From Psammoneis japonica (lineage: Eukaryota), in NCBI GenBank assembly GCA_008632985.1, contig QPGO01000033.1:372001-436000 (forward strand): a stretch of 64,000 nucleotides of DNA, written 5' to 3'. The position numbers were made by a program, and so were the translations under genes. Within the stretch, counting starts at the first letter, position 1, and the number at the start of each line of letters is the position of its first letter. This document shows positions 16,001-64,000 of this stretch, piece by piece. The notes under the pieces were generated by a model. The model searched no databases. It saw nothing but the letters and a program-made list of their open reading frames with translations, and was not told the origin of the DNA.

Positions 16001-16265
16001 CTGCTACGGCGGCATAGGGTTTGCCCTCGCGATATTGATTAAATTTCCCGGAAACATGTTTGATAGGAGTGGAACCGCTATAAAAGTGGTGCACAAGAGC
16101 TGATTTGCCCGTTCCAGAAGCACCCTGAATAAACACCGTGCAACTGTTATTGCATTCAACGTCGTCATAAATCTCTTGCAACTGATTCAGTTCCTGCGAG
16201 CGCCCGAAGAGTGGCAATTCCTTCGTTCTTAATTGTGGACAATTCAGATGCGTAGGATCCAACAT
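13010..16265 (-). CDS. STAND-class (AAA_16) P-loop ATPase with C-terminal TPR-like helical region
   Basis: LFGRSQE, Walker A GASGTGKS, Walker B IFMDDLQWAD, TLGNAFF, FVHDRIQQAAY and C-terminal YEEWGAKAKA. Intron 13903-14006. 1-bp frameshift in an A-run near 13292. Confidence 0.85.
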
Positions 16266-17460: not shown

Positions 17461-17715
17461 ATGTTTGTACCGTGTGTTGGCCGCAAAAAATTTAGCGCGC
17501 GTCATTCGCGATCCGAATTTACCTATTTGTATCAGGCAGACATGCTTTTCGAATGGAGATTTTTGATTGGGCGACGGGGTTCTCGTTGACATTTCAAGCA
17601 CGAAGAAAGAGAATAGCAAAATCTTGATGATATGTTCCTCGCATTTGCTCTCGGCATTGGATCGATCTTTCTGTATTGTAGATTGTACAGTAGCTTGATT
17701 GAAAGAGAGAACATC

Positions 17716-23491: not shown

Positions 23492-24437
23492 TCTGAGAGA
23501 ATCCATTCGATGCACGAATCGCTTCAGTACTTTGATGTGGATGTATGGGTCGATGGACCTTGTGATTTCATCCTAGATTGGCATTTTGAATATGTACAGG
23601 TTGATGGTACTGCAGTCCACAGTCGATGATTCAATCTGGCTATAGGCCAGAATGTGCTTTGAAAATGACGAGTAACGACAATGCGGGAGCGCTGATCCTC
23701 GATGTTCATCTCAACAAGAAACTACTCAACAAGCATTCAGAAGCCACCAGGCGGCACTATTTCGTTACGCAATACTCGATCATTTCTTTTCAGTTTTTGC
23801 AAGGCTAGCACACACAGCGTCAACCCAATCGCAAGTTCCAGAACGAAAGAGATCTCGAAATGGAGAGCACTCGTTGTTGTTAATCATCACTCCACGTTTT
23901 TTCTTCTTCTTCCGGAGGGCTGCCGCCTCCGTCAATCGCAGCCGCCACAGCCACAGCCAGTGCAAGTCCCATAACCATAATGATGGTGCCTGTTATTTCT
24001 CCGATTGACGTGCCGTTCGACATGTTCTTTGATCTGCATCATGACATAAAACACAATGTTGCAAAAAGTGAGACATCGTCACTGCACGCAAAAATGTTCT
24101 CATTGCAGTCGAAACCAGCACTTTTCTTACCGGTCAGTTCCGCAAAAGCAAGAAATCGTTTCACTTGAAACTGTGTCCTCTTTCTACGGATTTTGTGTTT
24201 TGTGTCTGAAACTTGTGTCTGAGAGAATCCATTCGATGCACGAATCGATGCACGAATCGCTTATTCAATGCACGAATCGCTCTTAGGTACTTTTATGGAT
24301 GTATGGGTCGACGGACATTGTGATTTCATCCAAGATTGGCATTTTGAATATGTACAGGTTGATGGTACTGCAGTCCACAGTCGATGATTCAATCTGGCTA
24401 GGCCAGAATGTGCTTTGAAAATGACGAGTGACGACAA
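23492..24437 (+). repeat. Pair of ~190-220 bp direct repeats (23492-23681 and 24218-24437) separated by ~535 bp
   Basis: Near-identical tctgagagaatccattcgatgcacgaatcg...gattggcattttgaatatgtacaggttgatggtactgcagtccacagtcgatgattcaatctggc...gaaaatgacgagt. The second copy has an expanded atgcacgaatcg unit. Confidence 0.9.
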
Positions 24438-24582
24438 CAATGGCTCTTGAAGCTCGTACGGCAGAGCTCTCCGATGGCTATCGGAATCTGTTGCGCTAGT
24501 GACGAATCTCCGAAATCACGACTTTGAAATTCTATTACATCGGCCAATTTGTAGGAACGGAAGTCAGTGACGTAGATCCGTC

Positions 24583-27500: not shown

Positions 27501-28329
27501 GCATGGACGAAATCTCACGGTGTAACTCTGGCACAAGTCTCCAACCCGAGTGTTGCCAAACACCATCGTTCAATCCAAAGCCAATACTGTCATTGTCTTG
27601 AAAGTTGACAAGGCCGTGTCCCGCTCCAAAGATTTGATCCAATGCATGTACTCCAGTAATGACGCCACCCCATTGGGCTGTCAATTCAGCAGAAACAATA
27701 TCGATTGCAAGCTTCTCTTTTTCTTCATCAGACAAGAAAACTTCCTCCAGCATGTCTGCACCCTGGTCAACCTTAAGATCTTCGGTATCTATCCATTCCT
27801 GTGAAAGCAAGTCCCATTCGTCTTCATCCTCTTCAACTTCTTCTGTTGTCACGATTCGAGATTGTGATTGCTTGGCATATTGGCTAGCCATTCGTAGCAG
27901 ACTCAACAACACGGCAGACACTGACTCAGGGTGACGAAGAACAAATCGTGGTAGCTGCAATTCCGCCATGGCATTTGCCAAGGGAGTAAAGAGAGGCTCA
28001 TTGGGCCATGTTGTTGTAGATTGGAAGTCTAGATTCGTAGCAAGTCTCCCCTTGAGAAGGGCATTTCGCCATACTTCGAGACCCCTTGAACTTGCAATAA
28101 CACTGCTAAAATCAAGTACTGATTCGTCTTGTTCCAACAAAAGACGAGTCAACAGAGGGTCAATCGATGTTGTTGCTGTTTTTGCCGGAGCTGCTGCAGT
28201 AGGACTGACAAAGAAATGGATATCGCGGTGTTTTCTTTCTCTCCATAGTTTTGGTGACTGCACAAACGCTAAACTCCTAAAGGCAATGGCAACAAGAATC
28301 AGGCAAAAAAAAAGAATAGAGTGAGGCAT
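24583..28329 (-). CDS. ViaA-like VWA domain fused to a RavA-like MoxR AAA+ ATPase, with bipartite plastid-type presequence
   Basis: Uninterrupted 1248-aa ORF. VWA part: MLPSEALLL, MIDAS ICLDTSWSM, FGGGTDV, LLVTDGE. AAA part: LVERQEE, GPPGTAKS, LLTRFTTPEEIFGPLS, FLDEIFKANSAILNTLL, GASNELP, ALYDRF. N-terminus ...FRSLA|FVQSP. Confidence 0.9.
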   Translation of the reverse strand: MPHSILFFCLILVAIAFRSLAFVQSPKLWRERKHRDIHFFVSPTAAAPAKTATTSIDPLLTRLLLEQDESVLDFSSVIASSRGLEVWRNALLKGRLATNLDFQSTTTWPNEPLFTPLANAMAELQLPRFVLRHPESVSAVLLSLLRMASQYAKQSQSRIVTTEEVEEDEDEWDLLSQEWIDTEDLKVDQGADMLEEVFLSDEEKEKLAIDIVSAELTAQWGGVITGVHALDQIFGAGHGLVNFQDNDSIGFGLNDGVWQHSGWRLVPELHREISSMPEIKELISLLGRRPTAEQSEAMHKFVPRRLDEEGALGAQYDSSRRTSIRGITLSGSLSEMLPSEALLLAQKQEEHEKPTQSALRRLFLAKMVESKLLSYESAGWQDVPSSNVPKPRYFSRLPSAPGGPIMICLDTSWSMTGRREQLSKAVVLACVAAAHKHKRDVQVVAFSSASNTMETGPISADAHGVRRLLEFLSSSFGGGTDVTGALKHAMAVTTTEESPLNSTSVHQRDLNAMAAADILLVTDGEIPDPPVSEVVMQALDRLKQRAGVQVHGLLVGKRESAPLSKLCTHTHDFLIGYESVTPTAASAVDDWNTGSRTLLRSKRLANTPSHQLPAGTTNHARRFLSTRRLITDGRTSLEARYQDYYEDDDEDWGGQRKRRGRSYTRKSRYDQNVDLFIERDSLAEEASAQTISQASSSTPVSDFNVKADQVIQKLKDDVKKGVADDRWNVSMLDEEKSSIGSCWRYRKELQNAVDRVAEGLVERQEEARLVVLGMVSQEHVLFLGPPGTAKSVLGRRLSQLCGGTFFQRLLTRFTTPEEIFGPLSLRALENDEYRRKTDGFLPTASVAFLDEIFKANSAILNTLLTILNERTFDNGAGVRENCPIRCVVGASNELPESDELDALYDRFLLRKEVLPVSDEGVLQMLRMELPGGSPCDDPAEGGAETCETVFTDDLDTLVMDVSAAADHVVMDDDACTLMRELRTFMRNEFDVDVSDRRLVKSTRLLKISAACHGRTRVDPVDCLLLQHLVWRLPEQRAAVREWLWNHITPGSCDVSSTTIEDESLESSALSVVRQFRLLLDGLRQEAIALVRKTNGDVTGESGGRKSDIEAIQSLATESSRLGNILQQRSFQLARHSELLRRSSDHLWLDPVEAQAAQQLLLPRANAYAKEVERALQDALSLEKALSDNTVIPNDCRLVVVEQLWDENGDMEMAFSEDALSMSMKEAKKKYDTETFRKWKRARKKANKS

Positions 28330-28759
28330 AATCTAATGCTAGAGTCAAACCTGCACGTGGTTTGCATCGCCGAGGCCAGCCGCAATCCTCGTCATGGTGG
28401 CCAATATTTCATATCTCCCGAATCATCGCATCATCGCGTGCGTGTTGGAGGGAAAAACGGGCGCATTGCAGACGGTATGAATACGATAGAACGCACGCAC
28501 GGCAAGCGCTGTTCCATTTATGAATGTCTTCATTCAAGAAGAAACAGCATAAATATCAACGTTAAATAACATGAGAACTCCGATACATATCGCGCAAGAC
28601 ACATTTGACGTCGTACTGTATGTACCGTACAGTACAGTACTTCTTGCCGGCACGTTTCAACACCACGACTAACCGCATCCCGCATCATCACTCTACACCG
28701 ACCGACCTTGTGCCTCATATGAATTGATCTGTCAAGTATGCAACGAATTATTGGACACC

Positions 28760-31296
28760 ATGGACCAGCAACAACCTCTCGCTTATTTCGATGATCTGCG
28801 ATTTGACGAAAATGTCAAGGCAGAAGTGTTTGAAGGCTCCAAAGTGATTCTCGTCAACGGAAACATTCGGCTGTGTCAGCTTTTGTTTTTGGGCCCATCC
28901 GCGATGCGAACGATTAACGAACAAGGACAAGTCGAGTCAGCACCGTTTGATTTATTTGTCTATGCCGAAGCGACAGCCTTGCTTGCCATGAAGCACTTTA
29001 ACGAACGCAATCCTGCAGTGGTGGAGGATCTAGACGAACGATTACGAGACTGCAATATTTACTTTACAGCTGACTTGCGCGATTCACAATTCAGTCCGAT
29101 TCAAGCGTCTCGACAAATGCTGGAGGCACACGCTCCACAACACTCTCTCGAAACACCTCTTCCGGTTGCCATGATTGGTGCGGGCAGATCGGCAGTGTCG
29201 CTTCCACTGGGAATATTAGGCGGTGTCTCGTATGAATTGCCGCAAATTAGTTTTCTCTCCACGTCTGCTGAACTCGATAACCGAGAGAACTTGCCGTATT
29301 TTGCGAGAACCATTCCATCCAATACCGGAGACGCGTATTCCATTGCCATTTACCTTCGAAATTTAGGTATATCGCGCTTTGGTGTCTTGTACGTTCGAGA
29401 TTCGTACGGCTCCAATTACTTTTCGGATTTGCAAAGTGCGGCACGCAAGTACGGCATGACGATTGTGAGTGCGTCCTATGTCGTTTCCGATGAAGAGAGC
29501 ATTCGTACAGCGGTTGGAAGACTGCAGCAGTCGGGCCTGACGTATTTTGTGGGGATTTTGAGTCCAGACAATTACAAAATCTTGCTCAACAAATTGGTGG
29601 AGGCGAATATAATTGGAAATGCAAATACCCACTGGTTATTCTCGGACGGGCTTACAGAGATTATAGATTCTGGATATAGGGTGCCAGAGAATGAAGCGCA
29701 TATTGCAAGCGCACTCCATGGATCGGGCGTGGTGACCTTGAATGTACCTCCGAATGAGCGACTTAATGAAGCATTAAAGGAACTCGTGACCAATGTGGAG
29801 TTTCGGGAACACTACATTGCGAGACATGTGGCAGAGCCGGAAATATTCAAGGATTTTAACATCTCTGAAATTCCGCCGAGTACTTCTGTCTTTCACATTT
29901 TGGGCTATGATGCTGTTATTGCAATGGGCCTTGCGGCGTGTGATGTGGAACAAGATTACTTTACCGGTCCACAACTTTACGACCAGCTGCGGAAAACGAA
30001 ATTTAATGGCGCCTCTGGTCGGGTTGTATTTGACAGTGTGACTGGAACACGAGATTACGAAGCTGTGCAGTTTGCAATTACTAATGTCGTGAGAACAAAC
30101 ACCAGCGACAGCGATGGGTCGTTTCGTTTCAACGCCCAAACGTCGGTAGTCATTTCACCGAACGAAACAGAAGCAGTACACCTACTCAACCCGTTTGTTT
30201 TTTGGGATGGATCCGAAATTTCACCACCGGCCTTACCCCCTTTACGACCCGATATGAATTTGATTAGTTTGGGAGTTCGTGTGACTGGGTGGGTCTTGGC
30301 GGGCCTAATGGTGTTCATGTCCGTGGGGTGGGCCGTATGGACGTTTCGGAACAAGAGCAAGCCTGTCGTACGGGCGTCCCAACCGCAGTTCTTGTACATG
30401 CTTTGCCTTGGGACTGGTATCATGGCACTCACAATCATTCCAATGAGCTTGCAAGAGCCAATTTCACAACGTGGGCTTGACATTGCGTGCATGTCAATCC
30501 CCTGGGTACTGTCTGTCGGATTCGTAACATCGTTCTCAGCTCTCTTTTCCAAGACTTGGCGACTAAACAAGGCAAGTTGGCATCCGTTTCACTTTGGATA
30601 CACGCGCTTTTTGTCGTTCTTGTCAGTAGAGCTTACATATTGTTCTTCTCTATATTTCTACAGCTCTTCAGCAAGAGCACAGCGTTTCGTCGCGTTGAAA
30701 TCCAAGTTAAGGATGTGCTGCTCCCGTTTGTGGTACTGATGTCCATCAATGTCACCGTGTTAGTGGTTTGGACGATTATCGCTCCTCTCAAATGGACACG
30801 CCGTGTGACTTCTAGTATCGACATGTTTGGGAGACCAGATGAATCATATGGGACTTGCTACTACATCTACGATGACCGCCAATATGCATTTACCATATTG
30901 TGGGCTTTGATCAACGCCAGTGCTGTTCTCTTGGCTGTGTTTCAACTTTATCACGCTCGTAAGGTACCCCCATCAAATTTCAACGAGAGCAGCTTTATAT
31001 TTATATCTTTGCTCAGCTTTCTGGAAACGCTGGTCATTGCTTTACCGCTTTTCTTTGTGACTCAAGATAACCCTACCGCGGCTTTTATTGTGAATTCTCT
31101 TTTGGTGGTAATAATTTGCCTTTCCATATTGCTTCCTCTATTTATTCCCAAGTACATCAAAAGGAACAAGAGAGCACTGGACGCTCCACGAGCGAGAATC
31201 ATGAGAACCATTGTGGGCAGCAACACGCATAGTCGGTGCTCGAAAGTAAGCCGCGAAGAAGATTCGAATAGACAGGAAGGCAGCTCAGAGAAATAG
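28760..31296 (+). CDS. Class C (GABA-B-like) GPCR: Venus-flytrap domain plus 7TM
   Basis: IGAGRSAVS, PQISFLSTS, PYFARTIP, YDAVIA, FNGASGRVVFD, VRASQPQFL, FSALFSKTWRL, FNESSFI, LFIPK. GC-AG intron 30572-30663 joins the two ORFs. Start uncertain. Confidence 0.9.
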
Positions 31297-41100: not shown

Positions 41101-41960
41101 CAATTCATCAAAAAATGAGCCATCATTCTGTCATCACTGCCTTGCTCCAAAAAGCCCTTGCTGTGTGATGTGGCATGGCATGTGCTCGCTGCTTTTGCTG
41201 TGAATGCCAGCATTTGCTGCAGACACAGCACCCCAGCATGCACACTCTGTTCACACTGAGGACCCTTGCAACAACTTGCAACTGACAGCAAAGCTCTCCT
41301 CTCTTGCCAGCCAAATTTTGTTCATCTGTCTGGCATGCAAGCACAGCCTTGAGTGCTGATTTTCTGAGCATGTCAGCAAGCGAGGGTGCAAGCACACGCG
41401 TTGTCCTGATGGCACATTTTCCAGCTTTGGGCGGGATGCTCTGCACGGCATTTTGAGCCTGCCGAGCTTTGCAAACAAACCCTGCAGCAAAATCGCTGTG
41501 CAACAAACAAGTCAACAATTGGTTGGGAACAGAGTGAGAGATGACTGTTTTTAGATTGATTTTGGGAAACACCCAGCCAGGCTTGAAGCATGTGTGTTGT
41601 TTCTGGTGCTTGCTCAGGTGCCCCGCTCACATGTGAAAAATGTCACCAACACAACTGCCTGACTGTGGTCTCGAAAATGGTCAAAATCAAGTTCTTTTGG
41701 CTTTGTAAAATGGGGCATGTCAGTGCTTGACGAAAGAGCTGGTGCGCACCCCCGCCCTGCTCTGCCAATCGAGTTTGGGTTCCTGCTTGTCACCAGCCAT
41801 GTGGAGGCGCAGAACCAGCTGATGAGCATGTGCAGCGCAGAACTGTTGGCTTGCCGCGCGCCAGCCACCAAGTTCAAAGTTCCGAGACTCTGGCCGGCAA
41901 AGCGCGGATCGGATGACTCAGAACTTGAAGAACGGCAGCCGGCGATTGGCTGATTTCATC
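36830..41960. mobile_element. CpG/TpA-depleted degenerate block C (EamA pseudogene plus TE remnants)
   Basis: CG and TA are near-absent, with graded edges. Confidence 0.7.
38400..38950 (+). mobile_element. Possible pogo/Fot1-like DDE_1 transposase remnant
   Basis: Fragments KGCITQ...LW and FTTSCWLFQQLDVAHNGAMKT resemble the DDE_1 'GW.t..F..W' and 'PxxTxxLQPLDV..f...K' motifs. Confidence 0.4.
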
Positions 41961-44651: not shown

Positions 44652-45272
44652 TGTCCCAAGATGATCTCCCCGAAGCTTGGCTTTGTCCCTTTCTACTCCA
44701 AGATCGACAAGGTGCCCCCTTGGAGGACGGTGTGATCGTCTACTCCCTTGGCATCATGCAATGGGAGATTTGTAAGGGCAATTCTTTGCTTTTCAAGGTC
44801 CACAAGGTTGACGCTGTGCTTTGTAGATGTCGACCACTCGGTTGTTTCCTACCAGGGCACGTCCGCACAAAGATATGGTTTCCCCGAAGCTTGGCTTTGT
44901 CCTTTTCATCGAGATCGACAAGGTGCCCCCGTGGAGGACGGTGTGATCGTCTACTCCCTTGGTATCTTGCATGGAGATGTATGTAAGGGCGAGGCTTTGC
45001 TTTTCAAGGTCCACGAGATTGACGCTGTGCTTTAAAGATGTCGACCAATCGGTTGTTTCCTACGATAGCACGTCTGTCCAAAGATGAAGCTTGGCTTTGT
45101 CCCTTTCCCAAGATCGACAAGGTGCCCCCGTGGAGGACGGCGTGATCGTCTACTCCCTTGGCATCGTGCATGAAGATATATGAAAGGGCGTGGCTTTGCT
45201 TTTCAAGATCCACAAGATTGACGCTGTGCTTTGAAGATATCGACCACTCGGTTGTATCCTAGCATGGCACGT
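44652..45272 (+). repeat. Tandem repeat, 3 copies of ~200-215 bp
   Basis: gaagcttggctttgtcc...agatcgacaaggtgcccc..ggaggacgg.gtgatcgtctactcccttgg...ttgacgctgtgcttt recurs at ~44672, 44886 and 45086. Confidence 0.9.
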
Positions 45273-45769
45273 TTATTCCTCAAGTGGCCCAGCTTATGGC
45301 AAGTGGCCCAGCTTATGTTGTGACGATAGTCCCCCAAGACCCTCAAGAATAGCACAATACCTCGAGTTGCAGCTTGTGTCCCCGTGGAGGTTTCGTCCTC
45401 CCTTGACTCTGAGAGCGCCTCTCGAGCGATGCTTTTCTATTCCTGCCCCTCAAGACGATCCTACGAAAGTACGCAACGTTACTCTCTGCATTCTCCATAC
45501 ATTTCATCCTTCCCGTCCACAAGATTTACGTTCTATTCACATGCGACTTTCATACTTAATTATTATGTAGGTAACATTTATCCTGCAATGCTACTCAGTC
45601 GATTTCCTTAGCAATTCCTTCCACCCAATCACTCAAGCATTAGAGCACGCACATACTATACCGTAAATATTTGCGCTGTTGACAAAATCTTAAAGTTAAC
45701 TCTGTAACAATCAATTTCAGCTCACACATGTCAAGTCTCTTGTCTGGCAGTGCTGTACCGTATGTTCGC

Positions 45770-49139: not shown

Positions 49140-52100
49140 TTCATCCACGAATCATCCCTCCACCACCACGACAAATCACCGTGTCATCGCCAATGCTTCA
49201 TTGCATCCGGTTCTTTTCTGCATCTCTGCTGCTGTGTCCAGCTCTTGTCAAGTTGTTGCTGTTGTTGAGCCCGTTGTGCGAGTTTTTGCAAGCTGGCAAT
49301 TTCGCTGTGCTTGCAAACAAGCAAAAGCTTGTTGCTGGCCACACTCTGCTTTCTGACTGTTGTTGCATTTGGAAACAGAGCTGCCAAAACTAATGCTGCT
49401 GATCTCCTGTCAAGATGTTGACATCATTTTTGGTTTGCAGACTTGGCAACCTTTGTTTGGGGGGGTGCACTTTGGGTGCTGACATGTCAACAGCGGCAAA
49501 TGCATCATGGCTGGGAGATCATGGCTGATTTTGTTCTGGTTGAGACAACCTGTCATGCTGTTGTTTGGTGTCTGACATTTTTGAGCACAGCTGCCAAAAC
49601 AGATGCCACTGATCTCTTGACAATGGGGCCAAGCTCCTCTTCATTGTCTTTGGCTTGCAGACTTGGCAACCTTTTTGGCGTGCACTTGCAAGTGCAATTT
49701 GCTGGCTGAACTTTTGTTTGCACATGCAAGATGTTGTCACTTAATTGGCCAGTTTGCTCAGCTAAAAAGTCAGTGCCCAAGACAATGAGTTGCAGCAGCA
49801 TTCAGACAAAGCTTCATGGTTGGACTCTTTGAAGCCACCGAAGTCATGCTGGCTGCTGAGCTGGATGATGGTTGCTTGGAAGCAGCCAAACTTTCCATTT
49901 TGGTGAAGTGACAAAGATCCTCAATCTGCAACCTTGTGTGCTCTTTCTTTTGCAGTCTTGTGTCAACACTCATGACCAAGGTTGAGCCTTTGCCAGCTGT
50001 TTGCTGGAAGAAGCAGTGCTGGAAGCAGTGACACAAGCAATGTGCAAGTGTGCCTGGGGTGCTTGCAACTCTCCAGCAGCAGCTTTGCTCTGTCAAGGCA
50101 CCATCTTGCCAACTCATGATTGCATGCTCTCTTCTCAGAAGCAATGGATTTGATCATTTGCTGCACTGCATTTGCTGTGCAGGATTGGTCAATGTGAAAG
50201 CAGCTCAGTTGCAGCTGCAGCTTTTTGCTCTTGGTGACATTCATCTAAAGATTTGTGGCTGCAGTGGTTGGCTGGAACAGATGCTGTCAGAAATGCTCTT
50301 GCTTTCTGTCTTCATGGGGTTTGCAAGATGCAATTGGATTTTGCACAGAAAACGCTCTGCAGACCTTTGCTTTTTTTTGCTCCAGCTTGCACTTCTATCT
50401 TGCCATGAGCAAATCTTGTGCAACATGTCCTTTTTGCTTTCAACTGGCTGCAGACCCAAACAACCTCTTGCTCCAGGAAAGCACTCGGTCATGGAGGATG
50501 CCTTGGTGGGTTGATCATCAGCCCAGTCAATTGCAGCTGCTCTTTGAAAGCCTGGCCATGGCTGCCACAACTTTGGGCGCACAAGCACACAATGCTTGAG
50601 CAAGAGAAAATGTCTGGACAAGCAACAATGGACTTTCTTTGTGAATGAATGACTGTCAATTCAACAAAAGAAGAGAGTTCATTCCTGCTGGTTGCATCAA
50701 GTCTTTTGCATCATTGGTGCTGCAATGTCAAGAGACTTGTCATGCTTGTTCACAGCAAGTTTGCCAGCCAAGCACTGCAGTGATGCAGGCACCAGAAAGT
50801 TGGAGATTCTGAAAAAAGTTTCTTGTGTCTCTTCCTCTCTTGGAGCAAGAGAACAGTGGCCAAGCTTGGCTGGGATGATGAGTTGCAGCAAAGCAGCACT
50901 CAGAAAAATGTGTCTGCAGCATGCACCAAGAATTCTGCAGCCCGCTCCAGTCAGCCCCACTTGTTGTCCATCCCTCCCCAGTTCTTAAAGACAGGGACAT
51001 TCATCAGATCTCTGAGCATCAGAGCAAATTGCTTGTCTTCCTCTGATTCATGAGAGCAGTCTGATTTGGAAGAGACCAGTTGACAAAAGGTGGGGCAGAC
51101 CACCACTCTGACACACAATCTGCAATTGAGCTCTAAAGTGCTGATGATGACTTGGGATTTGTTGACCCAGTTGTGCAGCATTTTGGGGAGACAAGTTGAC
51201 AGCCTTGTGACTTCTTTGTGGTTGACTTGCTTTTGCAACATGCAATGTCAGCAAATGAGGATGGAGCTGTGGTGTCAGGTGCACTCAAGTTCAAAGAGCC
51301 TGAGGATGACAGGAAAACTCTGACAAGCCAATCACACTCAGCTGCAGCAGAGGTGTTTGTGGCCACAATGACAACAACAAGAGCATTGCTGCAGGTTCTG
51401 GAGGGCCTGCAGGTTCAACCTGAGAAGCATTGTTTCTGACTCAGCTGCCTGGCAATGAAGGCAGGTTTCTTTGGAGTGGAGGGGTGGAATCGCAAAAAGG
51501 TCCAGCTCTGACTTGGGAGAACCCAGTTGCAGACTTCATTGCCAAAGAGCCACCAAGAAAAGGCAGAGAGAGGAGATGAAGAGAGACAAAAACCCATTGG
51601 CACATTTCACACAGCAGCTCCAAAGACATGCTCATTGACCTGGGGCTCCCAACAGAGTGAGATGTGCAAAATGAAGCAGGAGCATCTCCATGCCCCACAT
51701 GAACAACACCATCCCATTTTTTGCTCAGCAACCCCAGCTGTTCAATTGCTGCTTGTGTCATTGTTGTTGTTGTTGTCAACCACCCAACACTGCACACTTT
51801 GGTTGCATCAAGAGAGATGTTGTCATCAATTGCTGATGCCAAAACACACAGAGAGACAGTCTTGACAACAGCACAGATGTCTGTGATGGTGAGAGAGACA
51901 GAGACATGCAAAAGTGAGCAAACCAGTTGCCTTGCAGGGAGACATTGTTTGCTGTGTCCCCAACAATTTTTTTCTTCTTGGACATGAACTTTTTTGTGAC
52001 TTCTGGCAAATGCCCACCAGCTTGGTGGGCAAGTTTCAAGCACATTTCACATGGTGCAAACATGCAGATTTCTGCTTTGGCAATGCACAGAAATGCAGCT

Positions 52101-55100
52101 TTCGCCCACGCTGCACAATTGCGGTGCTGAGTTGTGTGCAGCACGCCAGTTTTTTTTTTTTTTGCAAATCTGTGCATCATTTTGCACAGGGTGCACAAGC
52201 ACCTGCTGCAAGTGGCAGTGTGCTCAAATCTGCACAGGCAACTGCTGTGGGTGCTTGCCCACATGCATGCCACAGTGACGCTGGGCCCACAGAACTCCAC
52301 ACATGAGGAGCTCTGCACTGAAATCAAAAGGTGATGAACAACTGATGGTCACCAAGAAAAAAGGCCTTTTTGCATGCAACAGCGCAAACTCATCCATGCT
52401 TGAAGTGTGTGCCTTGGTGTTTTCTGCAGACATCAAAGAAATTCCCAGCCTGGCTTTTGCCATCAGAAATGGGCAAAATGAAAATTCTTTGGTTTCAAAA
52501 CACAAAAATTTTTGCAAAAGAGTGCACAAAGACATGCGCGTGCATGACATGCAGCCCATGATCAAAAATGTTCTGTCACAGTCCCACAACATGCCCGCCA
52601 ATTTGGTGCACTCCCCTGAGACCAAAAGCAAAAGCACAAAAACAAAAAACGAAACATTGCAGTTGTTCTGCAACTCTCTTGTGCTTGAAAACAACATTGT
52701 CCACCAAATGAAGCCACATTGTTGCATGGCTGCCCCTTTCAACCACACTTTTGAGTCCAAAATTGATGTCCCCACTCAATTTGCATTTGCTTTGCAACAC
52801 CAACAACAGTCACCTCAGAGTGGTGCAAACAAACCCTTGCTTGCCATCCGCACTTGTTCATTGTCTTTTGTTTTGTTGGTGCTTCAAAACATTGGCCATC
52901 TCTTGATCACTTGCTTTCTTCATGAGACACACAAAAGAATTGCCACAAAGGGCAAAAAACTGCTGTCGTGTGATCTGCACTCTCTCACACATCATTGTGT
53001 TCACGCAGATTTTTTGAAAACAAACAACACTGAATGCCCAATCTTTGTTGGGTGGCAAAAAGAGATTGATGACAAGCACATTGATTGTTCTGTCAGACAT
53101 GTGCAGAAGGAACTTGTTTGCAGATTGAGCCACACACCAACTTCTGCATGGAATGACAGGTGCTTTTTTGTGCAAGTTCCTGTGGATGTGTTGCGCGGCT
53201 GTTTTTGACAATTTTTTGTCATCTTTGCAGCTGCAGAACTGATGCCACACATGGGCAATGCAAAGTGAGCATGACATGCATCATGATTTTGATGTGTTTC
53301 AGCCCCCAGGTGGCAGGGCTCATGTTGCACACAACACCAGGCCTGCAAACAGAATGAACTGCAATGGCACAACCATCTGTCAGGAGCATGCAACATTTTG
53401 CTGTTGCACATTGACCATGGCCAGCGAGATCAAGGGAGTCAGGTTGTTCTTTTGGCTCAGACAGGCTCTCAATGTGTGGCACATGCTGTGGCACATTGGA
53501 TGACAGTGGGAGCAAGTGAGTGCATGTGCATGATGGGAAATCCAAGGAAGAGCTGAGGGAGTGGAGGCACATTCCACAGTGAAGCAAATGGCTGGGAAAA
53601 AACAAAAATTAAAAAAGAACCAAGGTCAGAACAAACAAGGACTCAAAAGGTGCCAAAAATTGGGAAAGGAGACACACAAGAGAAGGACGAACAAGGATGC
53701 TGAGCAATGTGATGAAATGTGGTCCAAGCAATTCTGGGATGATTGTGTTGACTGCAAAGAAGTCCTCTGGATGGATGGGGGATGGGCAATGTGATGTTGA
53801 TGGAAGCCGATGACAGCGACAATGAACAGAGGAGAGTTGTGGTTTGCAGATGCACTGCAAACAGCAGTGCAATGGTCATCTGGTCAGCCAAAAAGACAAT
53901 TGAGTGAGAAAGCAAAAGCACACATCAAAAGCATGATGAAACAAAAATTTGCTGCAAAATGAGAGTGCATCTTGGTGATTTGTGTGCTGTGACAGCAGGA
54001 AATGAAAGGCACAGCTGCGTGAACAATCTGGCATCATGAGATGACAAACAACCACCAATGATTGCCAAAGGGGAAGAAGTGATTTTTCATGCAAGTGAAC
54101 AAAGTCATCCATGATTGAAATGTGCACATTGTTTTTGGTGTGCATGGGTGTTTTCTGCAGATGTCAAAGAAAAAATGCCTCTCACACTGGCTTTGCTGTC
54201 AGAAATTGCCCCAAAAAATTTTTTGACCGTGCAAAAGAAGCTGTGTGAAACAATTTTGTCTGAGAGCACAAACAGAAAAGCAGCCCATGATTAAAAAATG
54301 TCCTGTCACAGCCCCGCACTGTCGCGCAAGGTCTCAACAACCAACAGAGCTGGAGCACCGCTGCAGTGGTTTAAAAAGAAAAACACCTGAATTTGGCAAT
54401 GTGTTGCAACCTCTGATGAAGGCAAGGACAGCTTTGTCAGATGGCACAAGTTGCACGGCATGAACCAAGCTGATCATTTTCACATTGGGCATGAAGCTGT
54501 CCCATGCACGAGAGCACCTTCTTGGCACAACAACAGCCACAGCAGCAGGTGCACAAACCACCTCTGTGTGCATGCGTCTCTCAGGACAACCAGCACAACT
54601 TCTGAGTTTTGAAGTGCATCAACAAAGAAGCTTGCACCAACATCCATGTGTCCCCAGTCCAGCCTTCAACATCAAGGAGGCCACCATCATTCACACAAAT
54701 CAAATGAATTGTGGTGGCATGATGAATGCGTGCATGGTCAGCAAGCCACAATGTCTTGCTGTTGCGCGCTCATTGTGGCTCAGCAACGCAAAGGGTGCCA
54801 GGTTGTTCTTTGGGCTTGGGTTTGTCCCAGAAAGAAGTCAACAAGTGTGCATCATGCACACATCACAGACCGCCCCAACTGACCCTTTGTGCTCAACTGC
54901 AGCAGCGCATGCAAAGACAATTTGAAATGAAAAACAGTCATTTTTGGGGCATGTCAACTTGATTGTGCATTGTCAAGGTCAGTTGCACCTCATTTCTCAT
55001 GTCTTTTTTCTCATTGTCAGTGCTTTCACCATGGTCTGTTGTTTTTCTGATTCAGACTCTGATGACAACTCTGTTCACTCCAACAAATTTTTGCGCTGCC

Positions 55101-56500
55101 CCAGCAGTGATGAGGACCCATCCAGAATGCCACTGCTGTTGCTGCTGCCTTGCATCAGTGTGCAGCAAACAAAGAAAACCAATGCAACAGCACAGGAGCA
55201 GATGGCTGGCACCATGTTGGTGACAACCCAAATCTTCAGATGATGAAAACAAACCCACGATTGCCACCGCTGCAAATGCACACCACACCACTGTTGCTGC
55301 TGCCTTGCATCAGCATGCAGCAGACCAAGAAAACCAACACATCAACACAGGAGACAGGTGGCATCAAGACAAGGACAACTTGTTTGATGCAGACAAGGAA
55401 GAGAGTGACAACAATGAGCCTCCTCTCTGTGCAACCAGAACAAGGTGCATGAGATGCTTGAAGTTGTTGATGCAGTGTTGTTGGCACGACATTTGTGGGG
55501 TTGGAGTTGGACCAAGTGGAGCAGCCCTGTCCTCTTGATGTGACTTCCCACTCAAACAACAAGAAGAGAACCCTGCTCACTTTTTCAGCAAGGGTGCCAG
55601 GCAGAATGCACTTTGTTTTTTTGCAAGGTTTGGAGGGTGTTCCAAGTTGTGCTGGGTGTTCCAAGTTGTGCTGCCAGCACCATTGGACAAGCAGCCCCTG
55701 CAACAAGCTTGCATGATCTTCACTGATGGTGATTCCCAAGAAATCAAAGAGCTGTGTGGTGCCATGTGCAGGCACATGCCTTCAACCCACCAAGCCAGAT
55801 GCAGGAGGCACAATTTTTGCAAAAGCTGGATGATGCACTGCCCCAGAGAAAAAGCATTGTGCCCCCCAATTGCAAAAGCTTCAAGCTCCAAGTTGCCGTG
55901 ATTGAGGCATGGTTGCACTCATTGATGCATCGGGGTGGGTGCAAGAACAAGGAGGAGATGATGGTGTCCAAGCAGGCATTGCTGCCAATGTTTCTTCATT
56001 CTTTGCTGGTTCTCCAGGTGTGAGGGAGTCAAGTCAACATCACTTGCATGTTCAAATTCATCCAAGGCAAAGTCTTCAACAAAGAAGCCAGCTGCACTTG
56101 TTGCCAAAAGAAGTGGGTGCATTGCTGCAAAGAAGCCAACAACTCAAGCCAAAGGAGCCAACTTTGGCATGAAAAATCATGTGGCCCCAGTGCTGCTGTC
56201 ACAAAGCCTGGCCACCAGTGAAAAAAATCTTGCAATGCAGTTGGGTGCAAAGGTTGTGGAGTTGATGCATCAGCCAAGCTGCAAAACAAACACACGGTGC
56301 CTGTGGTCAAAGCTGCCAATGGCGAATCACGTTCTCGCCAAGTGCATTGGAAGTTGCTTGCAAACAAACCAATGAGGAAGGAGACAAATGACAAGGTGCT
56401 CTTGAACAAGATCTCAAAGAAGAAGAAAGCAACAATGCCAAGGCCAGCAACCCACACTTCAAGTGCAACATCCCCAAGCGCCAATGACGCGTTCCAGCCC
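49140..56500. mobile_element. CpG/TpA-depleted degenerate block D (nested TE remnants)
   Basis: CG and TA are near-absent. Internal diverged duplications at ~49380/49590, ~52330/54050 and ~55130/55290. Confidence 0.75.
55490..56400 (+). mobile_element. MULE (Mutator-like) transposase remnant
   Basis: Fragments LDVTSHSNNKKRTLLTFSAR, WVFQVVLP...MIFTDGDSQEIKEL...RCRRH and EANNSS...NFGMK match the MULE D..D..CxxH..E layout once TG/CA are back-mutated. Confidence 0.65.
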
Positions 56501-56746
56501 TAGGTGGGACTCCGTGTGACATTGGGCCCGTAGAATTCTACGTGCGAGCTCCGTAGTACGAGAATTTAATCGATGGATATATTTATCTTCAACATCAAAT
56601 AAACGGCCAAGTTTGTGGTACAATTATGCCTCTTACCACTCGACGTTTTTGCAACTTCGCCTGCCCTACGCGATTCTTAAGACATTAAAGAATCGCGCTG
56701 TAACAAAAAATGTCAAAAGTTGTTGGACGGATCGCTCAATAAGTGT

Positions 56747-56747
56747 N
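56747..56747. other. Ambiguous base / probable contig join
   Basis: Single 'n'; composition switches abruptly from normal to CpG/TpA-depleted exactly here. Confidence 0.8.
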
Positions 56748-57998
56748 TTGAAGGCTTGCTGGAAAATGATGCAAAGGGCCATGCATGGCAGATCATTTTG
56801 ATCCATCTGTTGTCCCTGACAACCCCACAACCATGAGAGAGGACATTTTTGAGAGACTGGGTGATGCCATGTTGTTGTTGACAAACTTGCTCCCTGGGAC
56901 AAGCTGAGCAAGCTGTTGAATCCACCATGCCCTTGATGAACACTGCTGCTGCCAGCTTTTCACAGATTTCAAATGTCAACATGCAAAACAATGAGGATGA
57001 TGGGACCAACCTTGGGTTCAGATTCCTGGATGATGCATGCCAAGATGGCTGTGACTTGTGGGCAAACAACATGAGAGTGACAAGCTGCAGGCAGTCGCCA
57101 ATGATCAAAACCCTTGCAACACATCAGCTGGTTGCACGGCAAATCAACCACAACTGTTTTGTGGTCAATTGATGCAAAACAACAATGGCTTGCACTTTCG
57201 TCTAAAAATCACCCATTGCGAGGTCAGAACACCAACAATACTGTTTGTTTTGCTGCTTTTGGCATGTCTGTTCCCAATCTTGGCACTGTCTGATGGCAAC
57301 ACTTGATCACCACGCAAACATGCATTGTCAATGCATCCCATCACCAACCTCTCTTTCATTTTCTGTTGTTGCACCTGAGCCCAAGCACTTCAAACCCAGG
57401 ACTTTCTGAGACATTCTCTTCTTTGCCCAGCAGCATGAGATCACAGCACCATTCCCAAAGATGTGCCAACATGTCAAGCTGCATGTTGTCAAGTGTGCAT
57501 CGCCCTTGCGTCCACAAAGAAATTTCATTGTGTCTTCACTCCAACAAAAACAGTCAAGCAATGTCTGCTTCTCCTCTTTCCTGTCAAATTCCATGCCACA
57601 GCACATCTGAAGATCATTGTGGCACCCCCCTCACACATCCAAGAGTTTGAGCAGCACTCTTTTGGGGACACCCACAGCAGCAGAACTTGGAACTCTGCAT
57701 CTCATCCACCTTGTTTGCATTTTCCCAGTGTTGGCCACCACAGACGCGAAAGCAGGGTTTTCCATTGCTGGACACTTTGCCACTCCAGATCCAGCAGCCC
57801 TTGGTGTTGTCACAGCACAGGTGGCAACCCTCAAGTTCATTCAATGGAGCAGTGATCATTTGGAAAATTTCTGCAATGGGAATCTTGAGTGAGCAACATT
57901 TGATGTCCATGCAATCAAGATCATCCGCGACATGTCCTGCAAGAGAAAATGCAGCAGCCATGAGCAGAAGGCTGTTGGATGCAAACACCAGCATTTGA

Positions 57999-59836
57999 TG
58001 GTTCTCTTTCTTCTTTTCTGCCCACTTTGCAATGAGACAATCAAGTCCAGTCTCCAGCATGGGAAGCAACTTGTCAGCACCTTCCTTCATTTCATCAGTG
58101 ACATCCAAGTTGAGGGGTGCACCCTTTGGTCTAGAAAAGATGTGCGGCACCAGCCCAAGCTGGAGAGGTGTTCAGAAGGCTTCTTTCAAACTGCCAAGGA
58201 AAATGCAGAGGTTGTCGGGGCTGTCACTGTGAACATTGGATCAGGCAACAAATCAAAATCTGACAGCTCAGGTTCTTTTGGCAAAATGCCAGCTGCAAAA
58301 GCAAAGACAAGCAGAGCTCCAAGGCCACCGCTGTTCAAAGGATTGTTGTCAACCTTGCAAGTTGAACAAACACCAGCATCCTTCACTGGATTGACAAGTT
58401 TCCAACTCCATTCCTCCTTTTCCTTGGCACCTTCAAAAGCAAAAACAACAGCGTCATTGGTCAACAACAGAAGATTGGGGTTCACAGGAAATGCTGCCTC
58501 CAGCACGCTCCAAGCTTGTTTCACAAACTCAACCATTTCCTTTGCTTCATCACTGAGCTTGGACTTGTCACAATGCTCCCACCCTCTTTGGGGTTGGGCT
58601 TCTCAATGAAATGTGTTTGATGGCTCTCTTTCTTCTTTTCTGCCTGCTTTGCAATGAGACAATCAAGTCCAGTCTCCAGCATGGGAAGCAACTTGTCAGC
58701 ACCTTCCTTCATTTTGTCAGTGACACCCAAGTTGAGGGGTGCACCCTTTGGTCTAGAAAAGATGTTGCGGCACCAGCCCAAGCTGGAGAGGTGTTCAGAA
58801 GGCTTCTTTCAAACCACCAAGAACAATGCAGAGGTTGTTGGGGCTGTCACTGTGAACATTGGATCAGGCAACAAATCAAAATCTGACAGCTCACATTCTT
58901 TTGGCAAAATGCCAGCTGCAAAAGCAAAGACAAGCAGAGCTCCAAGGCCACCACTGTTCAAAGGATTGTTGTCAACCTTGCAAGTTGAACAAACACCAGC
59001 ATCCTTCACTGGATTGACAAGTTTCCAACTCCATTCCTCCTTTTCCTTGGCACCTTCAAAAGCAAAAACAACAGCGTCATTGGTCAACAACAGAAGATTG
59101 GGGTTCACAGGAAATGCTGCCTCCAACATTTCCAAGCTTGTTTCACAAACTCAACCATTTCCTTTGCTTCATCACTGAGCTTGGACTTGTCACAATGCTC
59201 CCACCCTCTTTGGGGTTGGGCTTCTCAATGAAATGCATTCGATGGCTCTCTTTCTTCTTTTCTGCCTGCTTTGCAATGAGACAATCAAGTCCAGTCTCCA
59301 GCATGGGAAGCAACTTGTCAGCACCTTTGTTCATTTCATCAGTGACACCCAAGTTGGAGGGTGCACCCTTTGGTCTAGAAAGGATGTTGCGGCACCAGCC
59401 CAAGTTGGAGAGGTGTTCAGAGGGTTTCTTTCAAACCACCAAGAACAATGCAGAGGTTGTTGGGGCTGTCGCTGTGAATGTTGGATTGGGCAACAAATCA
59501 AAATCTGACAGCTCAGGTTCTTTTTGGCAAAATGACAGCTGCTGAAGCAAAGGCAAGCCAAGCTCTGAGGCCACGCTGCTCCTCAAAGGATTGTTGTTGA
59601 CCTTTCAGGTTGAACAAACACCAGCATCCTTTGCTGGATTGACAAGTTTCCAACTCCTTTCTTCCTTTTCCTTGGTGCCTTCAAAAGCAAAAACAGAAGA
59701 TTGGGATTTGCAGGAAATCTGCCTCTGACATGTTCCAAGCTTGTTCACAAACTCAGCCATTTCCTTTGCTTCATCACTGAGCTTGAACTTGTCACAATGC
59801 TGCCACCCTCTTTGGGGTTGGGCCCTTCAATGAAGT
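57999..59836 (+). repeat. Tandem triplication of a ~622-bp unit
   Basis: ctctttcttcttttctgcc...gcaatgagacaatcaagtccagtctccagcatgggaagc recurs at ~58004, 58626 and 59248. Confidence 0.92.
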
Positions 59837-62800
59837 GTGCATCAAGCGGTGCATTTTGACATGTTGGTGCCATTTGAATCAAGTTCATGCTGACAAAGCG
59901 TGTCTCCATCTGACTTGTTGTTTTCCTGTCTGTCAACAAGCACTGCACACCCTTTTTCACAGCATGCAAAATCAATTGAACTTTGGCAGCAGCATCTGAG
60001 TTTTTTTTGCACTGCTGTGCTCTTCCATGGCTTCTTCTGCTTCAGAAAGACCAAACAATTTTCCACCGGCAGCCTCAACCTTGTCAGCGAACATGGCCTG
60101 GGCAGTGGCATGGATCATCACTCATCAGGCAGGGTCAACCAACGTGTCCTGCAGGTCCTCTCCTTGGCAGCTTGCAGATGTTTGAGATGTCAAAGTGTGG
60201 ACACCACTTTGACTGAACAGAATGCTTTGCAGCCTTCCTTCTTTCTTTGCTTTTTTTGGGGTGACAAGTCTTGTTTCATCCAACCAATGGATTTGTTGGC
60301 AGGGTCAGGGACAGGCAGACCAGAGTTGACAGCTTTTGGTGGAGTGTCGAGCTTTGCCCTTTTCAATTGTCTCACTTCAACATTTGGATCATTTTGTTTC
60401 AACACTGTCACTTTCTTTGCACTCTTGGGGGGTGCTCTTGCAAAGGACTTTAGCTGCCAAAGAGGGTCTGGGGGTGGGTTCTCATGATGCTCCTCTGCTT
60501 TCACCGAGTTGTGCAACCTTGACACATGTTTAACAAACCCAAATTCTGAGTCATTGAAGCACTTCGCACCAATGAAAATGAAACAAAAACCATCAAAAGA
60601 CATGCAAGATCAAGACCAATGGCCAAGTGACAATCAAGAGATGCGCCCTTTTTCACACAATTCTGACATGGTGTGAAGGCACCATCGTGGGTCACGACAC
60701 GCATGGCATCAGTTCATTTGGTGTCTTGCAAGCAGAGGTGATTGATTGGCAATGGATTGACCATTGTTGATTGTTGGCAGTTCAGCGGCATGCAAAAAGT
60801 CTTTTGTTCGCGTTTCCCATGCATGGAACAAAAAAGTGGCCAATTTGTCATTGTGGTCAATTTTCCATGCAACCAGTCAGTGCCAAGGACAAACACCCTG
60901 TTTGGTTTGTTCGAGTCTGAAGATGTTGCAAGCACAGATCCTCCAGACATGCAACCTTTGGTTGTCAGAGCAGATGAGATGATTGCAGAGACAGAGGAAA
61001 GCTCCACTCACTCTGTGTTGGCTGATGGGACCATCAGCTGACCATGATGAAGCAGTGCCTTGTTGGGTGTCCAATTGCAGCAAGAGGGAAACCAAGCATC
61101 AGCGCACCCACACATGTCACAACGGTGTGCACAAATGGTGGCAATGAATGTTCAGCAACAATGCAAATCATTGTGCATTGTGCAAACTTCAATGCACAGC
61201 TCAGCTGATGTCTGGACCTGATGTGATGATCAGGTCTAACACCGGCTGCATTGTGCAGCACTTTTTGTGCCAAGTCAATGCTCTCTTGACCAAGCGGCAC
61301 TGGCAGGTTCACTGGGCAGTTCACCCAAAACTGATGCTTGGGAGTCATGAGTTCAGGGGGGAACTCAAGCAACTTCAAACAGTCAATGCTGGGCAAGGAG
61401 CACAGTCTCAAGTCTGCTTTTGTCTTGACACATCAAGCAACCTCACCCCATTCTTCCAACATCCTGCTGCACAGAATTTGCTTGATGTGCTCAAACATGG
61501 GAGAGTCCCCAAACACCAGCACATTGTAAAACTCACACATTTTGTGATTGTCTTGTTTCTTCTCCTTGCAGATGAACAACTCAAACCACCTCTCTCTGCA
61601 CACTGAGTGTGCAAATGTGCATGTGCAAATGACAACACACAATTTGTGCACCTCTGTCTCTGCAGTGGTCAGCCAAGCCGTGTTCTGTTTTCAGATGATG
61701 AAGAAATGTCTTGCCAAAGGTTTGCACACTGTGGGTTTGCTGTCCAAACAGTTGGTCACAGGCAGCTCATGGTTGACAGCTGCTGTGAAGGCATTGCCTG
61801 GTTTGACAACAGCCTGTGTGTTGCCATCCAGGATGGCAGGAAGAAACCAATTGTCCCCTTCTGACCAATGTCATGAGCACCGGTCAAATTGCCAGATTGC
61901 TCCACATTGTCATTCAGCAGGCCAAATGAGGATTTGTGAGCCTTTTGATTTGGTCCATCTGGTTGGGAGTGGCTTCAACAAAATCTTTTCCGGAGGTGTG
62001 TGCACGCTGCACACCGCCACCTGAGCACAGGTTTCCAAGGTCCAATCATCTTCAGGCATGACATCAGTGTCCGGTTTGAGTGCATTGCAGAAGCAATGAA
62101 AGTCTTCTTGTCTGCCATGCTCGTGCTTGTGCAAATGGAACAAGTGGACAAACATCTTGGCCAAGTGACGCCCAATCAGCTTGTCAACCATGTTGCAGCA
62201 CAGCCTTTTGCAATGGCCCACCAACAGCAGCAGCATTCGGGCAGTGACACCCAAAAAACAAGGACCTGGTGCACATGCGTGCATTGCACACTGCACCAAA
62301 ACCAGCTCAAGATGGTTGAGCCAAAGTGTCAAAGCAAGACAAAGGCACAGGCAACCATGTGGCTTGCTCACCTTTGCTCAATGTGTTGCCAAGGCAGCGA
62401 CAAGACACATCAAATCACTGGTGGTTGCTGACACATCTGCCCAGAATGTTGTCGCAGGCATCTTTTTTTTATCACATCATTGCAGACACATCAAATTGCT
62501 GGTGGTTGCTGACACATCTGTCTAGAATGTTGTTGCAGGCATCTTGTTTTTTCATCACATCATTGCAGACCTTGCACATCTGGCAGTCAATGGCACATGT
62601 TGTTTCAACCTTCCATTTTCGGGGTCTTGTTCCAGACTGGACAGGCTGACCACTTGGCTGTTGTGCCATTTTTGGCATCATCATGATGCTTGCAATTGTG
62701 GCCTGGAACTTCAAACATCTCACTTGGACATCCAACATTCTGCATTGTCTTGGGGTCCAGAGTGTTTCCAAATTTGGAGCTGCAATCAGGGTGAGTGGGA

Positions 62801-64000
62801 TCAGCAAATGGAGGGGATGCTGCTGGCCTTTGGGGATGAATGCACCATTTTGCACAGCTGCACTGGCTTTTTTCATGGCGCAAATGAACACAGGATTTGG
62901 AACATGGGTGCTTGACTTGTTGGACTTGGGCAACCAGGTGGCTTTAAAGAATGCTGGGGTGACTGTGTCTGTCATCACAGTGGTTGGCTGGCTTTTGACA
63001 TTTCACTGATTTCTTTTCTGGAGCAGCATTGAATTTACATCCACACTTTGTTCCAGCTTTGATGCCAGACCAATCAACATCTTTTGCCAACGTGGCAGCT
63101 TCTTTGTCATCATGGATGACTGTTGTGGCTGTTGTTGCAATGCACAAGTGTTTTGGGGTTGCACAGATGATGCGGGGCAGGAGAGATGCAGGGAGAAGCA
63201 CAAACCTGTTGAATCCATTTGTCAAGAAACTGATCAGGCACTGGCCATGTCCATGCTCACCACAGTGCAACAAGTGAGCTTGATGCTTGGCCTGCAGCCA
63301 GAAGTGAGTTTTGGAGACATTGTTCAGGATGCAGTCTACACTGAGTCAACCTTGGTTGATCAGAGCAAGCTGCTTGTCCCTGGAAAGTTTGAACTGTTCA
63401 TTGTTGTTGAACTTCTCCAAAAAAAAAACATGATTGAAAATGAGCTGCTTGTGCAGAGAAGCAGGCAAGGAATGGCGCAAGTGCCAGAACACCAGTGGGA
63501 AGCCAATGACACATTCCAGCCTTGGGTGGGAGCTTCCAGTGTGGACGTGTGACACAAATGTTTTTTGTCATCCGTCACATGTTTTGCACACACATTTCTG
63601 TGTGTTGTCACACAAAAATTGTTCCACACTGCCCATTTTGCAAAGCCCCAAACATTTCATTCGGTGCATTTGTGGGAACATCAATGCACCCAATGCACTC
63701 TTGAATGCATGAAGAGTCCATTGGGTCAAGTGAAAAATGATGTGCTTCCATCATGGACGAGTTGGTGTTTTTGCAAAATTGTCTCTTTTTCTGTTGGCGA
63801 TCATTGGCACATTCATCACCTGACAATTTTGCTGCAGAGCTCGCACACAGAATTCTGTGGGCCCAATGATGTGCCAGTTCCACCTGCATCTGGGACGTGT
63901 CCAATGGGTGACATGGGAAGGCAGAAGCAATTGTTGGAGGCATTGGCAGACACGTGTTTCAGGGGACAGGACTCCGTGTGACATTGGGCCCACAGAATTC

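Follow-up and report, generated by a model that had tools for sequence, protein, structure and literature searches.

The main text of a recent preprint describes hypermutation of TpA to TpG or CpA in the alga Bigelowiella natans, where it strikes integrated DNA of nucleocytoplasmic large DNA viruses and of virophages (230 of 231 mutations in mutation-accumulation lines), where its direction was measured directly, and for which the authors propose an ADAT2-like adenine deaminase or a homologue (Mettrop et al., bioRxiv 10.64898/2026.01.13.699255). In the literature searched, this 2026 preprint on one unrelated alga is the only account of natural A:T to G:C chromosomal hypermutation, and no published case of TpA hypermutation in diatoms was found in a search that left most subscription journals outside. 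Here we analyze a window of 64,000 nucleotides from Psammoneis japonica (assembly GCA_008632985.1, contig QPGO01000033.1, positions 372,001 to 436,000; coordinates below are those of the window), in which gene-rich DNA alternates with blocks nearly devoid of TA and CG, and in which the end of an apparently young, very abundant transposon at 56486 lies among decayed relatives. The best explanation of the whole, which we consider likely, is a young element set among relics that have been worn down by a TA-erasing process together with CpG decay.

The likeness to B. natans, as its main text presents the case, lies in A:T to G:C changes at TpA giving TpG or CpA, in confinement to regions (of foreign or mobile DNA there, and probably of mobile DNA here) and in the involvement of single-copy sequence. 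In the window, such transitions are found at nine of nine anchored TA sites and in the mass balance, with their direction inferred; TA stands at 0.03 of expectation in five blocks versus 0.54 outside; and the blocks hold decayed element ends and tandem repeats, with no transposase or viral domain found in them. The two cases differ in that the process was measured in B. natans, whose main region still keeps TpA at 0.45 of expectation, whereas here it is read from an end state of 0.03, joined to CpG loss, in a diatom-like genome and with a flank rule of its own (5'-TAY/RTA; Y, pyrimidine; R, purine). The words diatom, CpG, trinucleotide and flanking do not occur in the main text of the preprint, and flank data may stand in its table S2. 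A diatom case would add stramenopiles to Rhizaria, and transposon relics to integrated viruses, as settings of the process; it would also present an end state that is nearly complete, together with a flank rule to limit the choice of enzyme.

Methyl-CpG decay would account for the three CG differences within the 37-bp pair treated below and for the low CG of the blocks (0.16 of expectation). 5-Methylcytosine deaminates to T, and conversion of CG to TG or CA in repeats is seen at 10 of 13 anchored CG sites. This process is unable to remove TA, which is lost more completely than CG and with a separate flank rule. In ascomycetes, repeat-induced point mutation (RIP) makes TpA from CpA and TpG. As in RIP, dinucleotide-specific transitions destroy mobile DNA here in sharply bounded stretches; unlike in RIP, TpA is removed, it is the most repeated sequence that is unmutated, and the mutated DNA is low-copy. 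RIP was therefore rejected, as TA is depleted instead of being in excess and TG and CA stand at 1.87 of expectation. As to its duplication trigger, the unmutated sequence is a family of very high copy number and the mutated one lies in low-copy blocks, the two also differing in age. Finally, TadA-derived editors likewise make A to G changes in DNA and favor TA and TAC, but they are engineered enzymes whose preference is graded, 2.9-fold for TA over GA (PMC8065034).

Composition and flanking context of the depleted blocks

The depleted blocks lie at about 8.5–11, 16.5–17.3, 36.9–41.9 and 49.3–64 kb. The last of these surrounds the transposon end and contains the following.

49200–56480, no strand: TA/CG-free block left of the insertion, by counts, with TA 10 versus 511 expected and CG 57 versus 401
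56748–64000, no strand: TA/CG-free block right of the assembly gap, by counts, with TA 14 versus 505 expected and CG 68 versus 404
57991–59850, no strand: three tandem units of about 622 bp, by sequence comparison, whose copies differ by TG/CA swaps at the same sites

Composition was compared between five blocks (22,737 bases) and 38,203 bases of ordinary DNA. The blocks have lost 94% of their TA and 84% of their CG, and both TG and CA have risen to 1.87 of expectation. The summed frequency of CG, TA, TG and CA is almost the same in blocks (0.244) and in ordinary DNA (0.242), the blocks differing by −0.048 in CG, −0.034 in TA and +0.084 in TG plus CA; the gain in TG and CA exceeds the loss of CG, so that CG loss alone is too small and TA loss is needed. 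The two depletions coincide in the same 500-base windows throughout.

The TA that survive are strongly sorted by their neighbors. Among 49 survivors in the blocks, 32 are YTAR (220 of 1392 in ordinary DNA; p = 4e-14) and a single one is RTAY (466 of 1392). Survival is 0.246, 0.038 and 0.0035 for sites with none, one and two strands reading RTA, close to independent hits on each strand. Additionally, the RCAR/RTGR ratio is 1.70 in blocks versus 1.23 in ordinary DNA, raised in four of the five blocks, and sites with a single RTA strand gave mostly CA. This flank rule specifies one base pair as the target, namely the A of 5'-TAY or the T of 5'-RTA. Survival of CG in the five blocks depends mildly on the flanks, in the opposite order to TA, at 0.244 for RCGY, 0.146 for mixed and 0.113 for YCGR contexts.

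Comparison of tandem copies inside the blocks gave 43 TG/CA swaps over seven pairs and none over four control pairs, the pairs overlapping one another. Swaps of this kind point to a palindromic ancestor at those sites, which may have been TA or CG alike. In an 81-bp tandem repeat at 62403–62631, the first two units differ at six transitions, five of them at pyrimidine–purine steps and including two CA/TA sites. Repeats within DNA of ordinary composition (44661–45284 and 23492–24445) show, over three pairwise comparisons, 11 differences of TA versus TG/CA and nine involving CG, although TA is the rarer dinucleotide; the TA differences may represent an early stage of the same process outside the blocks.

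Contigs from three public runs of one sample were mapped on 52000–64000, and 16 of 2937 pieces are listed. Between the window and three records of run X1, 25 differences were compared, drawn from 30 of 40 listed entries (367 in all) after ten entries at 59071–59126 were set aside as belonging to a presumed paralogous contig. Eighteen are transitions at pyrimidine–purine steps, comprising three TG/CA double swaps, ten changes involving CG and two involving TA; with two TA-linked changes among the 25, ongoing TA mutation does not rise above background in this comparison. The TG/CA double differences, at 54367–54368, 55595–55596 and 55607–55608, suggest independent hits on opposite strands after the haplotypes split.

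A probable transposon end and its decayed relatives

The young segment and the relics related to its end are as follows.

56486–56746, plus strand: end of an element that is young and of very high copy number, normal in its TA and CG content and truncated by the assembly gap (contig depth, contig breaks, composition)
56486–56509, plus strand: terminal 24 bases, a probable terminal inverted repeat preceded by CAAT (20 of 24 bases as in 63508–63531; 17 of 24 as in the reverse complement of 63878–63901)
56520–56556, plus strand: 37-bp subterminal core, TA/CG form (sequence comparison)
56529–56542, no strand: 14-bp palindrome CGTAGAATTCTACG, TA/CG form (sequence)
56747, no strand: single N, assembly gap (sequence)
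63508–63901, no strand: small non-autonomous element surviving as a 394-bp relic, its inverted ends of 24 bp decayed (16 of 24 alike) and each flanked by CAAT (sequence comparison)
63832–63868, minus strand: 37-bp core, TG/CA form, in the right end of the 394-bp relic (sequence comparison)
63846–63859, no strand: 14-bp palindrome CACAGAATTCTGTG, TG/CA form, also perfect (sequence)
63970–64000, plus strand: third copy and closest relative of the young end, 29 of 31 identical, with one CG to CA and one TA to CA, running off the window (sequence)
52270–52410, plus strand: older relic of a related end, with CA where the young copy has TA at 56539 (sequence comparison)
41397–41521, plus strand: more remote relic of a related end, inside a different TA-free block (gapped alignment, low identity)

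Summed contig depth reaches 145,251 in the bin 56411–56811, compared with 5,406 and 23,346 in the last two bins and 47–238 in the other 27; it is not a copy number and shows only that the family is very abundant. Thirty contigs whose flanks do not resemble one another (agreement 0.35) break before 56486 and 17 before 56491, which places the end of the family at 56486 and not at 56520. The sequence-only reading had taken the 37-bp core for a terminal repeat, and this has to be given up: the true end lies 34 bases further up, and the mutated core is internal to the 394-bp unit. Many copies at different sites with a sharp end, as seen here, are a feature of DNA transposons with terminal inverted repeats. 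The 261 bases of 56486–56746 hold 18 TA and 19 CG where the composition of the surrounding block predicts 0.4 and 2.2, and the nearest TA on the outside are at 54372 and 57203. We infer that the family consists of young DNA transposons whose terminal inverted repeats are short and whose superfamily is unassigned, and that this copy would have landed after the block had eroded. Rfam gave no match at E ≤ 1 for 56300–56900. For outgroup copies in metagenomes, a 26-letter pattern gave no matches and an 18-letter pattern 21 loci, none extending past 24 bases; the one locus that was followed up carries a prokaryotic open reading frame (ORF) that we take, by recognition of the sequence, to be acetyl-CoA-synthetase-like.

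The 394-bp unit has the decayed inverted ends expected of a transposon of this type or of a miniature inverted-repeat transposable element, and its flanking CAAT is a candidate 4-bp target duplication, a matter of four bases in one copy. Outside the core, the unit and the young end diverge by indels and transversions, and over 133 bases they are only 77% alike even when CG, TA, TG and CA are treated as equal, so the clean before-and-after pair first described does not hold. With this divergence the two 37-mers belong to related families and not to the two ends of one element; most simply, they would come from a young DNA transposon and an old miniature relative. A single 7.3-kb element bounded by 56520 and 63868 was accordingly rejected, there being no target duplication seen around these positions, a true end at 56486 and a mutated core that is part of the 394-bp unit. 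CAAT also flanks both 56486 and 63901, and a nested or composite element is conceivable on the present sequence.

The pair itself is as first reported. The 37-mer at 56520–56556 and the reverse complement of 63832–63868 agree at 31 of 37 positions, and each of the six differences (56530, 56531, 56540, 56541, 56552 and 56554) is a transition, CG being hit three times and TA three times, with TG or CA as products; the CACAG form is likewise present in the copy near 63982. The three TA changes all conform to the TAY/RTA rule. For six transitions placed randomly on 37 positions, the chance that all fall in this class is 0.0013, a figure that applies to a 37-mer chosen post hoc as the best-matching core. 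The direction of change had been argued from a palindrome retained in the pristine copy only. Both CGTAGAATTCTACG and CACAGAATTCTGTG are perfect 14-bp palindromes, and the argument is void because both forms are palindromic. The two TA sites of the palindrome are mirror images, and a strand rule mutates both as mirror images, which explains half of the retention; the two CG sites would have changed in the same way by chance. Both 37-mers fold the same 5-bp stem, and none of the five sequences compared with shuffles folds better than they do (z −0.47 to 0.78).

The pair had also been said to show the direction of the TpA change directly. Two sequences alone give no direction, and the pair is in this respect a weaker proof than had been thought; the conversion of TA to TG/CA is nevertheless supported by read depth, three-state sites and mass balance, and TA is probably the ancestral state, with TG/CA derived. 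The abundant form of the family is TA/CG, and the relics in the blocks are TG/CA. A contig of the shallow run X3, whose listed pieces fall on this repeat only and do not span 56530–56531, covers 56537–56649 with only two differing letters, both at 56571–56572; it agrees with the window at 56540, 56541, 56552 and 56554, and at these four of the six positions the commonest form thus has the TA/CG letters. Two sites at which the young copy reads TA occur in both derived states: for 56539, TG is found at 63868 and CA at 52282; for 56501, TG is found at 63508, and a consensus of 24 contigs extending behind 63868 gives CA. Since TA is one step from TG and from CA, which are two steps apart, such sites support a TA ancestor. 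Finally, in six anchored segments, which are drawn from three loci and not independent, TA was converted to TG/CA at 9 of 9 sites and CG at 10 of 13, while TG/CA was unchanged at 12 of 12. The TG/CA swaps between tandem copies in the blocks add a further line of support, one that fits a TA or a CG ancestor alike.

Several observations weigh against this reading. At four of the six sites every covering relic has the same derived letter (three of three at 56530–56531, two of two anchored relics at 56552/56554), and in nine contigs mapped on the young copy the sequence beyond 56553 follows the relic family, CA at 56554 included; the differences at these four sites may thus have been inherited with the family. 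About 87% of the run X1 depth reads TA at 56571–56572, where the window has CG, a two-step difference, and the window copy is a minority variant or subfamily rather than simply the master. The 52282 relic breaks the strand rule once, at 56539. By mass balance, the share of RTAR contexts going to CA is 1.16, and a share above 1 means that ordinary DNA is an imperfect stand-in for the ancestor. A protein-level test of direction, by change of conserved Tyr to His or Cys, failed, as no transposase or other homologue was found. For TadA-derived editors, moreover, the base that follows the target is reported to be less important than the one that precedes it (PMC8065034).

The first of these points underlies the strongest alternative, to which we give a substantial minority weight: the pair would reflect family divergence, the master of a sister family being already CA/TG at most positions, possibly mutated once and then amplified. 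Such a history is compatible with TA erasure, and the relic may owe part of the six differences to inheritance rather than to mutation in place. The shared derived letters, the relic-type continuation of the nine contigs and the low identity over 133 bases all speak for it. Opposing it, the copy at 63970, the closest of all to the young family, carries the same CACAG; the relics differ among themselves at 56501 and 56539; and the strand rule itself predicts CA in a GTAG context.

A different doubt concerns the young segment as assembled. The sequence-only reading had asked whether 56500–56746 is genuine DNA of the organism: it is real DNA of the sample, and very abundant, but its letters may not be those of the copy at this locus, as the contig ends at an N 190 bases past the core. 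The assembler may have walked from single-copy DNA into the repeat and written a mosaic, the real local copy being mutated or absent, an explanation that we hold to be rather unlikely. It draws on the 261 bases of very high depth that end at the N and on the left junction, where none of the 16 listed pieces (of 2937) bridges 56486 by 31 letters on each side. The segment nevertheless has its start precisely at the end of the family, its left junction is free of N, it is preceded by CAAT as is the 394-bp unit, and it carries a minority variant at 56571–56572 instead of the majority letters. If the segment were patchwork, the abundance argument for direction would survive, whereas an unmutated copy inside the block would not. 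On the other side of the gap, a single-copy contig over 56748–58054 carries 159 further letters, whose position left of 56748 is read from the strand of the record.

Candidate mechanisms

Under the reading that we favor, silent transposon-rich domains would undergo two transition processes that both end in TG/CA. One would be ordinary CpG decay following methylation, with which the CG loss agrees; methylation is putative here, and diatom transposons are reported to be CG-methylated, with DNMT5 described (Hoguin et al., PMC9998398). The other would convert A:T to G:C in 5'-TAY-3'/5'-RTA-3', each strand being hit independently. In chemical terms, a TadA/ADAT-like enzyme preferring T before and a pyrimidine after its target would deaminate adenine in DNA, and the resulting inosine would be copied as G. 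By analogy with the editors described above, adenine deamination in DNA is the chemistry that we rank first, and to which we lend slightly less than even belief. The full proposal is more tentative: this diatom lineage may possess a deaminase acting on adenine in nuclear DNA, or an equivalent that modifies thymine; the enzyme would be directed to silenced methylated domains and would rewrite 5'-TAY until TA is nearly gone, CpG decay helping to drive old mobile DNA to TG/CA. If this is true, freshly landed elements such as that at 56486 are the next substrates, the copies of the family form a dated series for measuring the process, and some mutated masters may have been amplified afterwards. 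The locus would in any case offer a practical handle, as an abundant young family stands beside old relatives, and direction, rate and position dependence are measurable from existing long reads.

The data specify a base pair and not a base, and the thymine of 5'-RTA could instead be the one modified, for example by a TET/JBP enzyme that marks silenced repeats by oxidizing it to hydroxymethyl- or formyluracil. Oxidized T mispairs with G, giving T to C. In a dinoflagellate, 5-hydroxymethyluracil is reported to take the place of T with a preference for TA and TC and to have a link with the silencing of transposons, and the words diatom and mutagen are absent from the main text of that study (PMC11572971). 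A literature search for hydroxymethyluracil together with TpA in dinoflagellates found no paper. In the blocks TC is only slightly low (0.90 versus 1.14 in ordinary DNA, which loss of TCG would also give), whereas TA is at 0.03, and we consider this route, like the patchwork assembly, rather unlikely.

Joint loss of TA and CG in the same 500-base windows would be explained if T:G mismatches from CpG decay recruited mismatch repair and a polymerase-eta-like enzyme that makes A to G errors at WA (W, A or T). Polymerase eta makes A to G errors at WA in antibody hypermutation. In the blocks, however, AA, the other WA target, is not depleted (1.28 versus 1.16 in ordinary DNA), TA has been lost to a greater extent than CG, and the B. 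natans mutations of this kind were, according to the main text, all at TpA with almost no C to T in the region (10.64898/2026.01.13.699255). Error-prone repair thus appears improbable.

A reversed direction, in which TG/CA would be ancestral and the young copy would have gained TA, as in fungal RIP, along with CG, is very improbable. The two-sequence pair allows either direction and the palindrome is neutral, but this course requires both TG to TA and CA to TA at one site, with CG gained at the same time; in composition the young segment is ordinary, while the blocks have TA at 0.03 of expectation, and the three-state sites disfavor it. A base-calling artifact of modified DNA can practically be dismissed, even though run X1 may be the window's own source sample, because long uniform X1 contigs reproduce the blocks at more than 99% (other letters 17 of 3343, 5 of 1310 and 14 of 4102) and misread modified bases should give mixed letters and broken contigs.

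Coding content and neighboring genes

Searches for coding remnants in the blocks were negative within their scope. Among 81 stop-free ORFs in 49200–64000 there were five weak matches, all at E ≥ 0.018 and below the cut-off; 18 read-through frames of three other blocks matched no Pfam family; and a phmmer search with the frame 60701–62377 gave two low-scoring matches, both to repetitive proteins. The minus strand of 57991–59850 reads like a repeated protein segment, and its stop-free ORF 58189–58602 (138 amino acids) found no homolog. On the minus strand of 60701–63345, long protein-like frames are interrupted by a few TGA codons and are rich in Cys and His, as expected of a gene eroded at TA and CG.

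The ordinary DNA between the blocks carries recognizable genes. For the AAA-ATPase ORF at 13962–16265, the three relatives with a eukaryote name among the 120 listed are the diatoms Attheya, Odontella and Ditylum, on which the description of the genome as diatom-like is based. A methyltransferase ORF at 17632–18699 (Pfam Methyltransf_25) adjoins the small depleted block at 16.5–17.3 kb. Further along, 24583–28329 holds an ORF with vWA and MoxR-type AAA domains (bpMoxR), and 28724–31296 a gene resembling class C G-protein-coupled receptors (ANF_receptor and 7tm_3).

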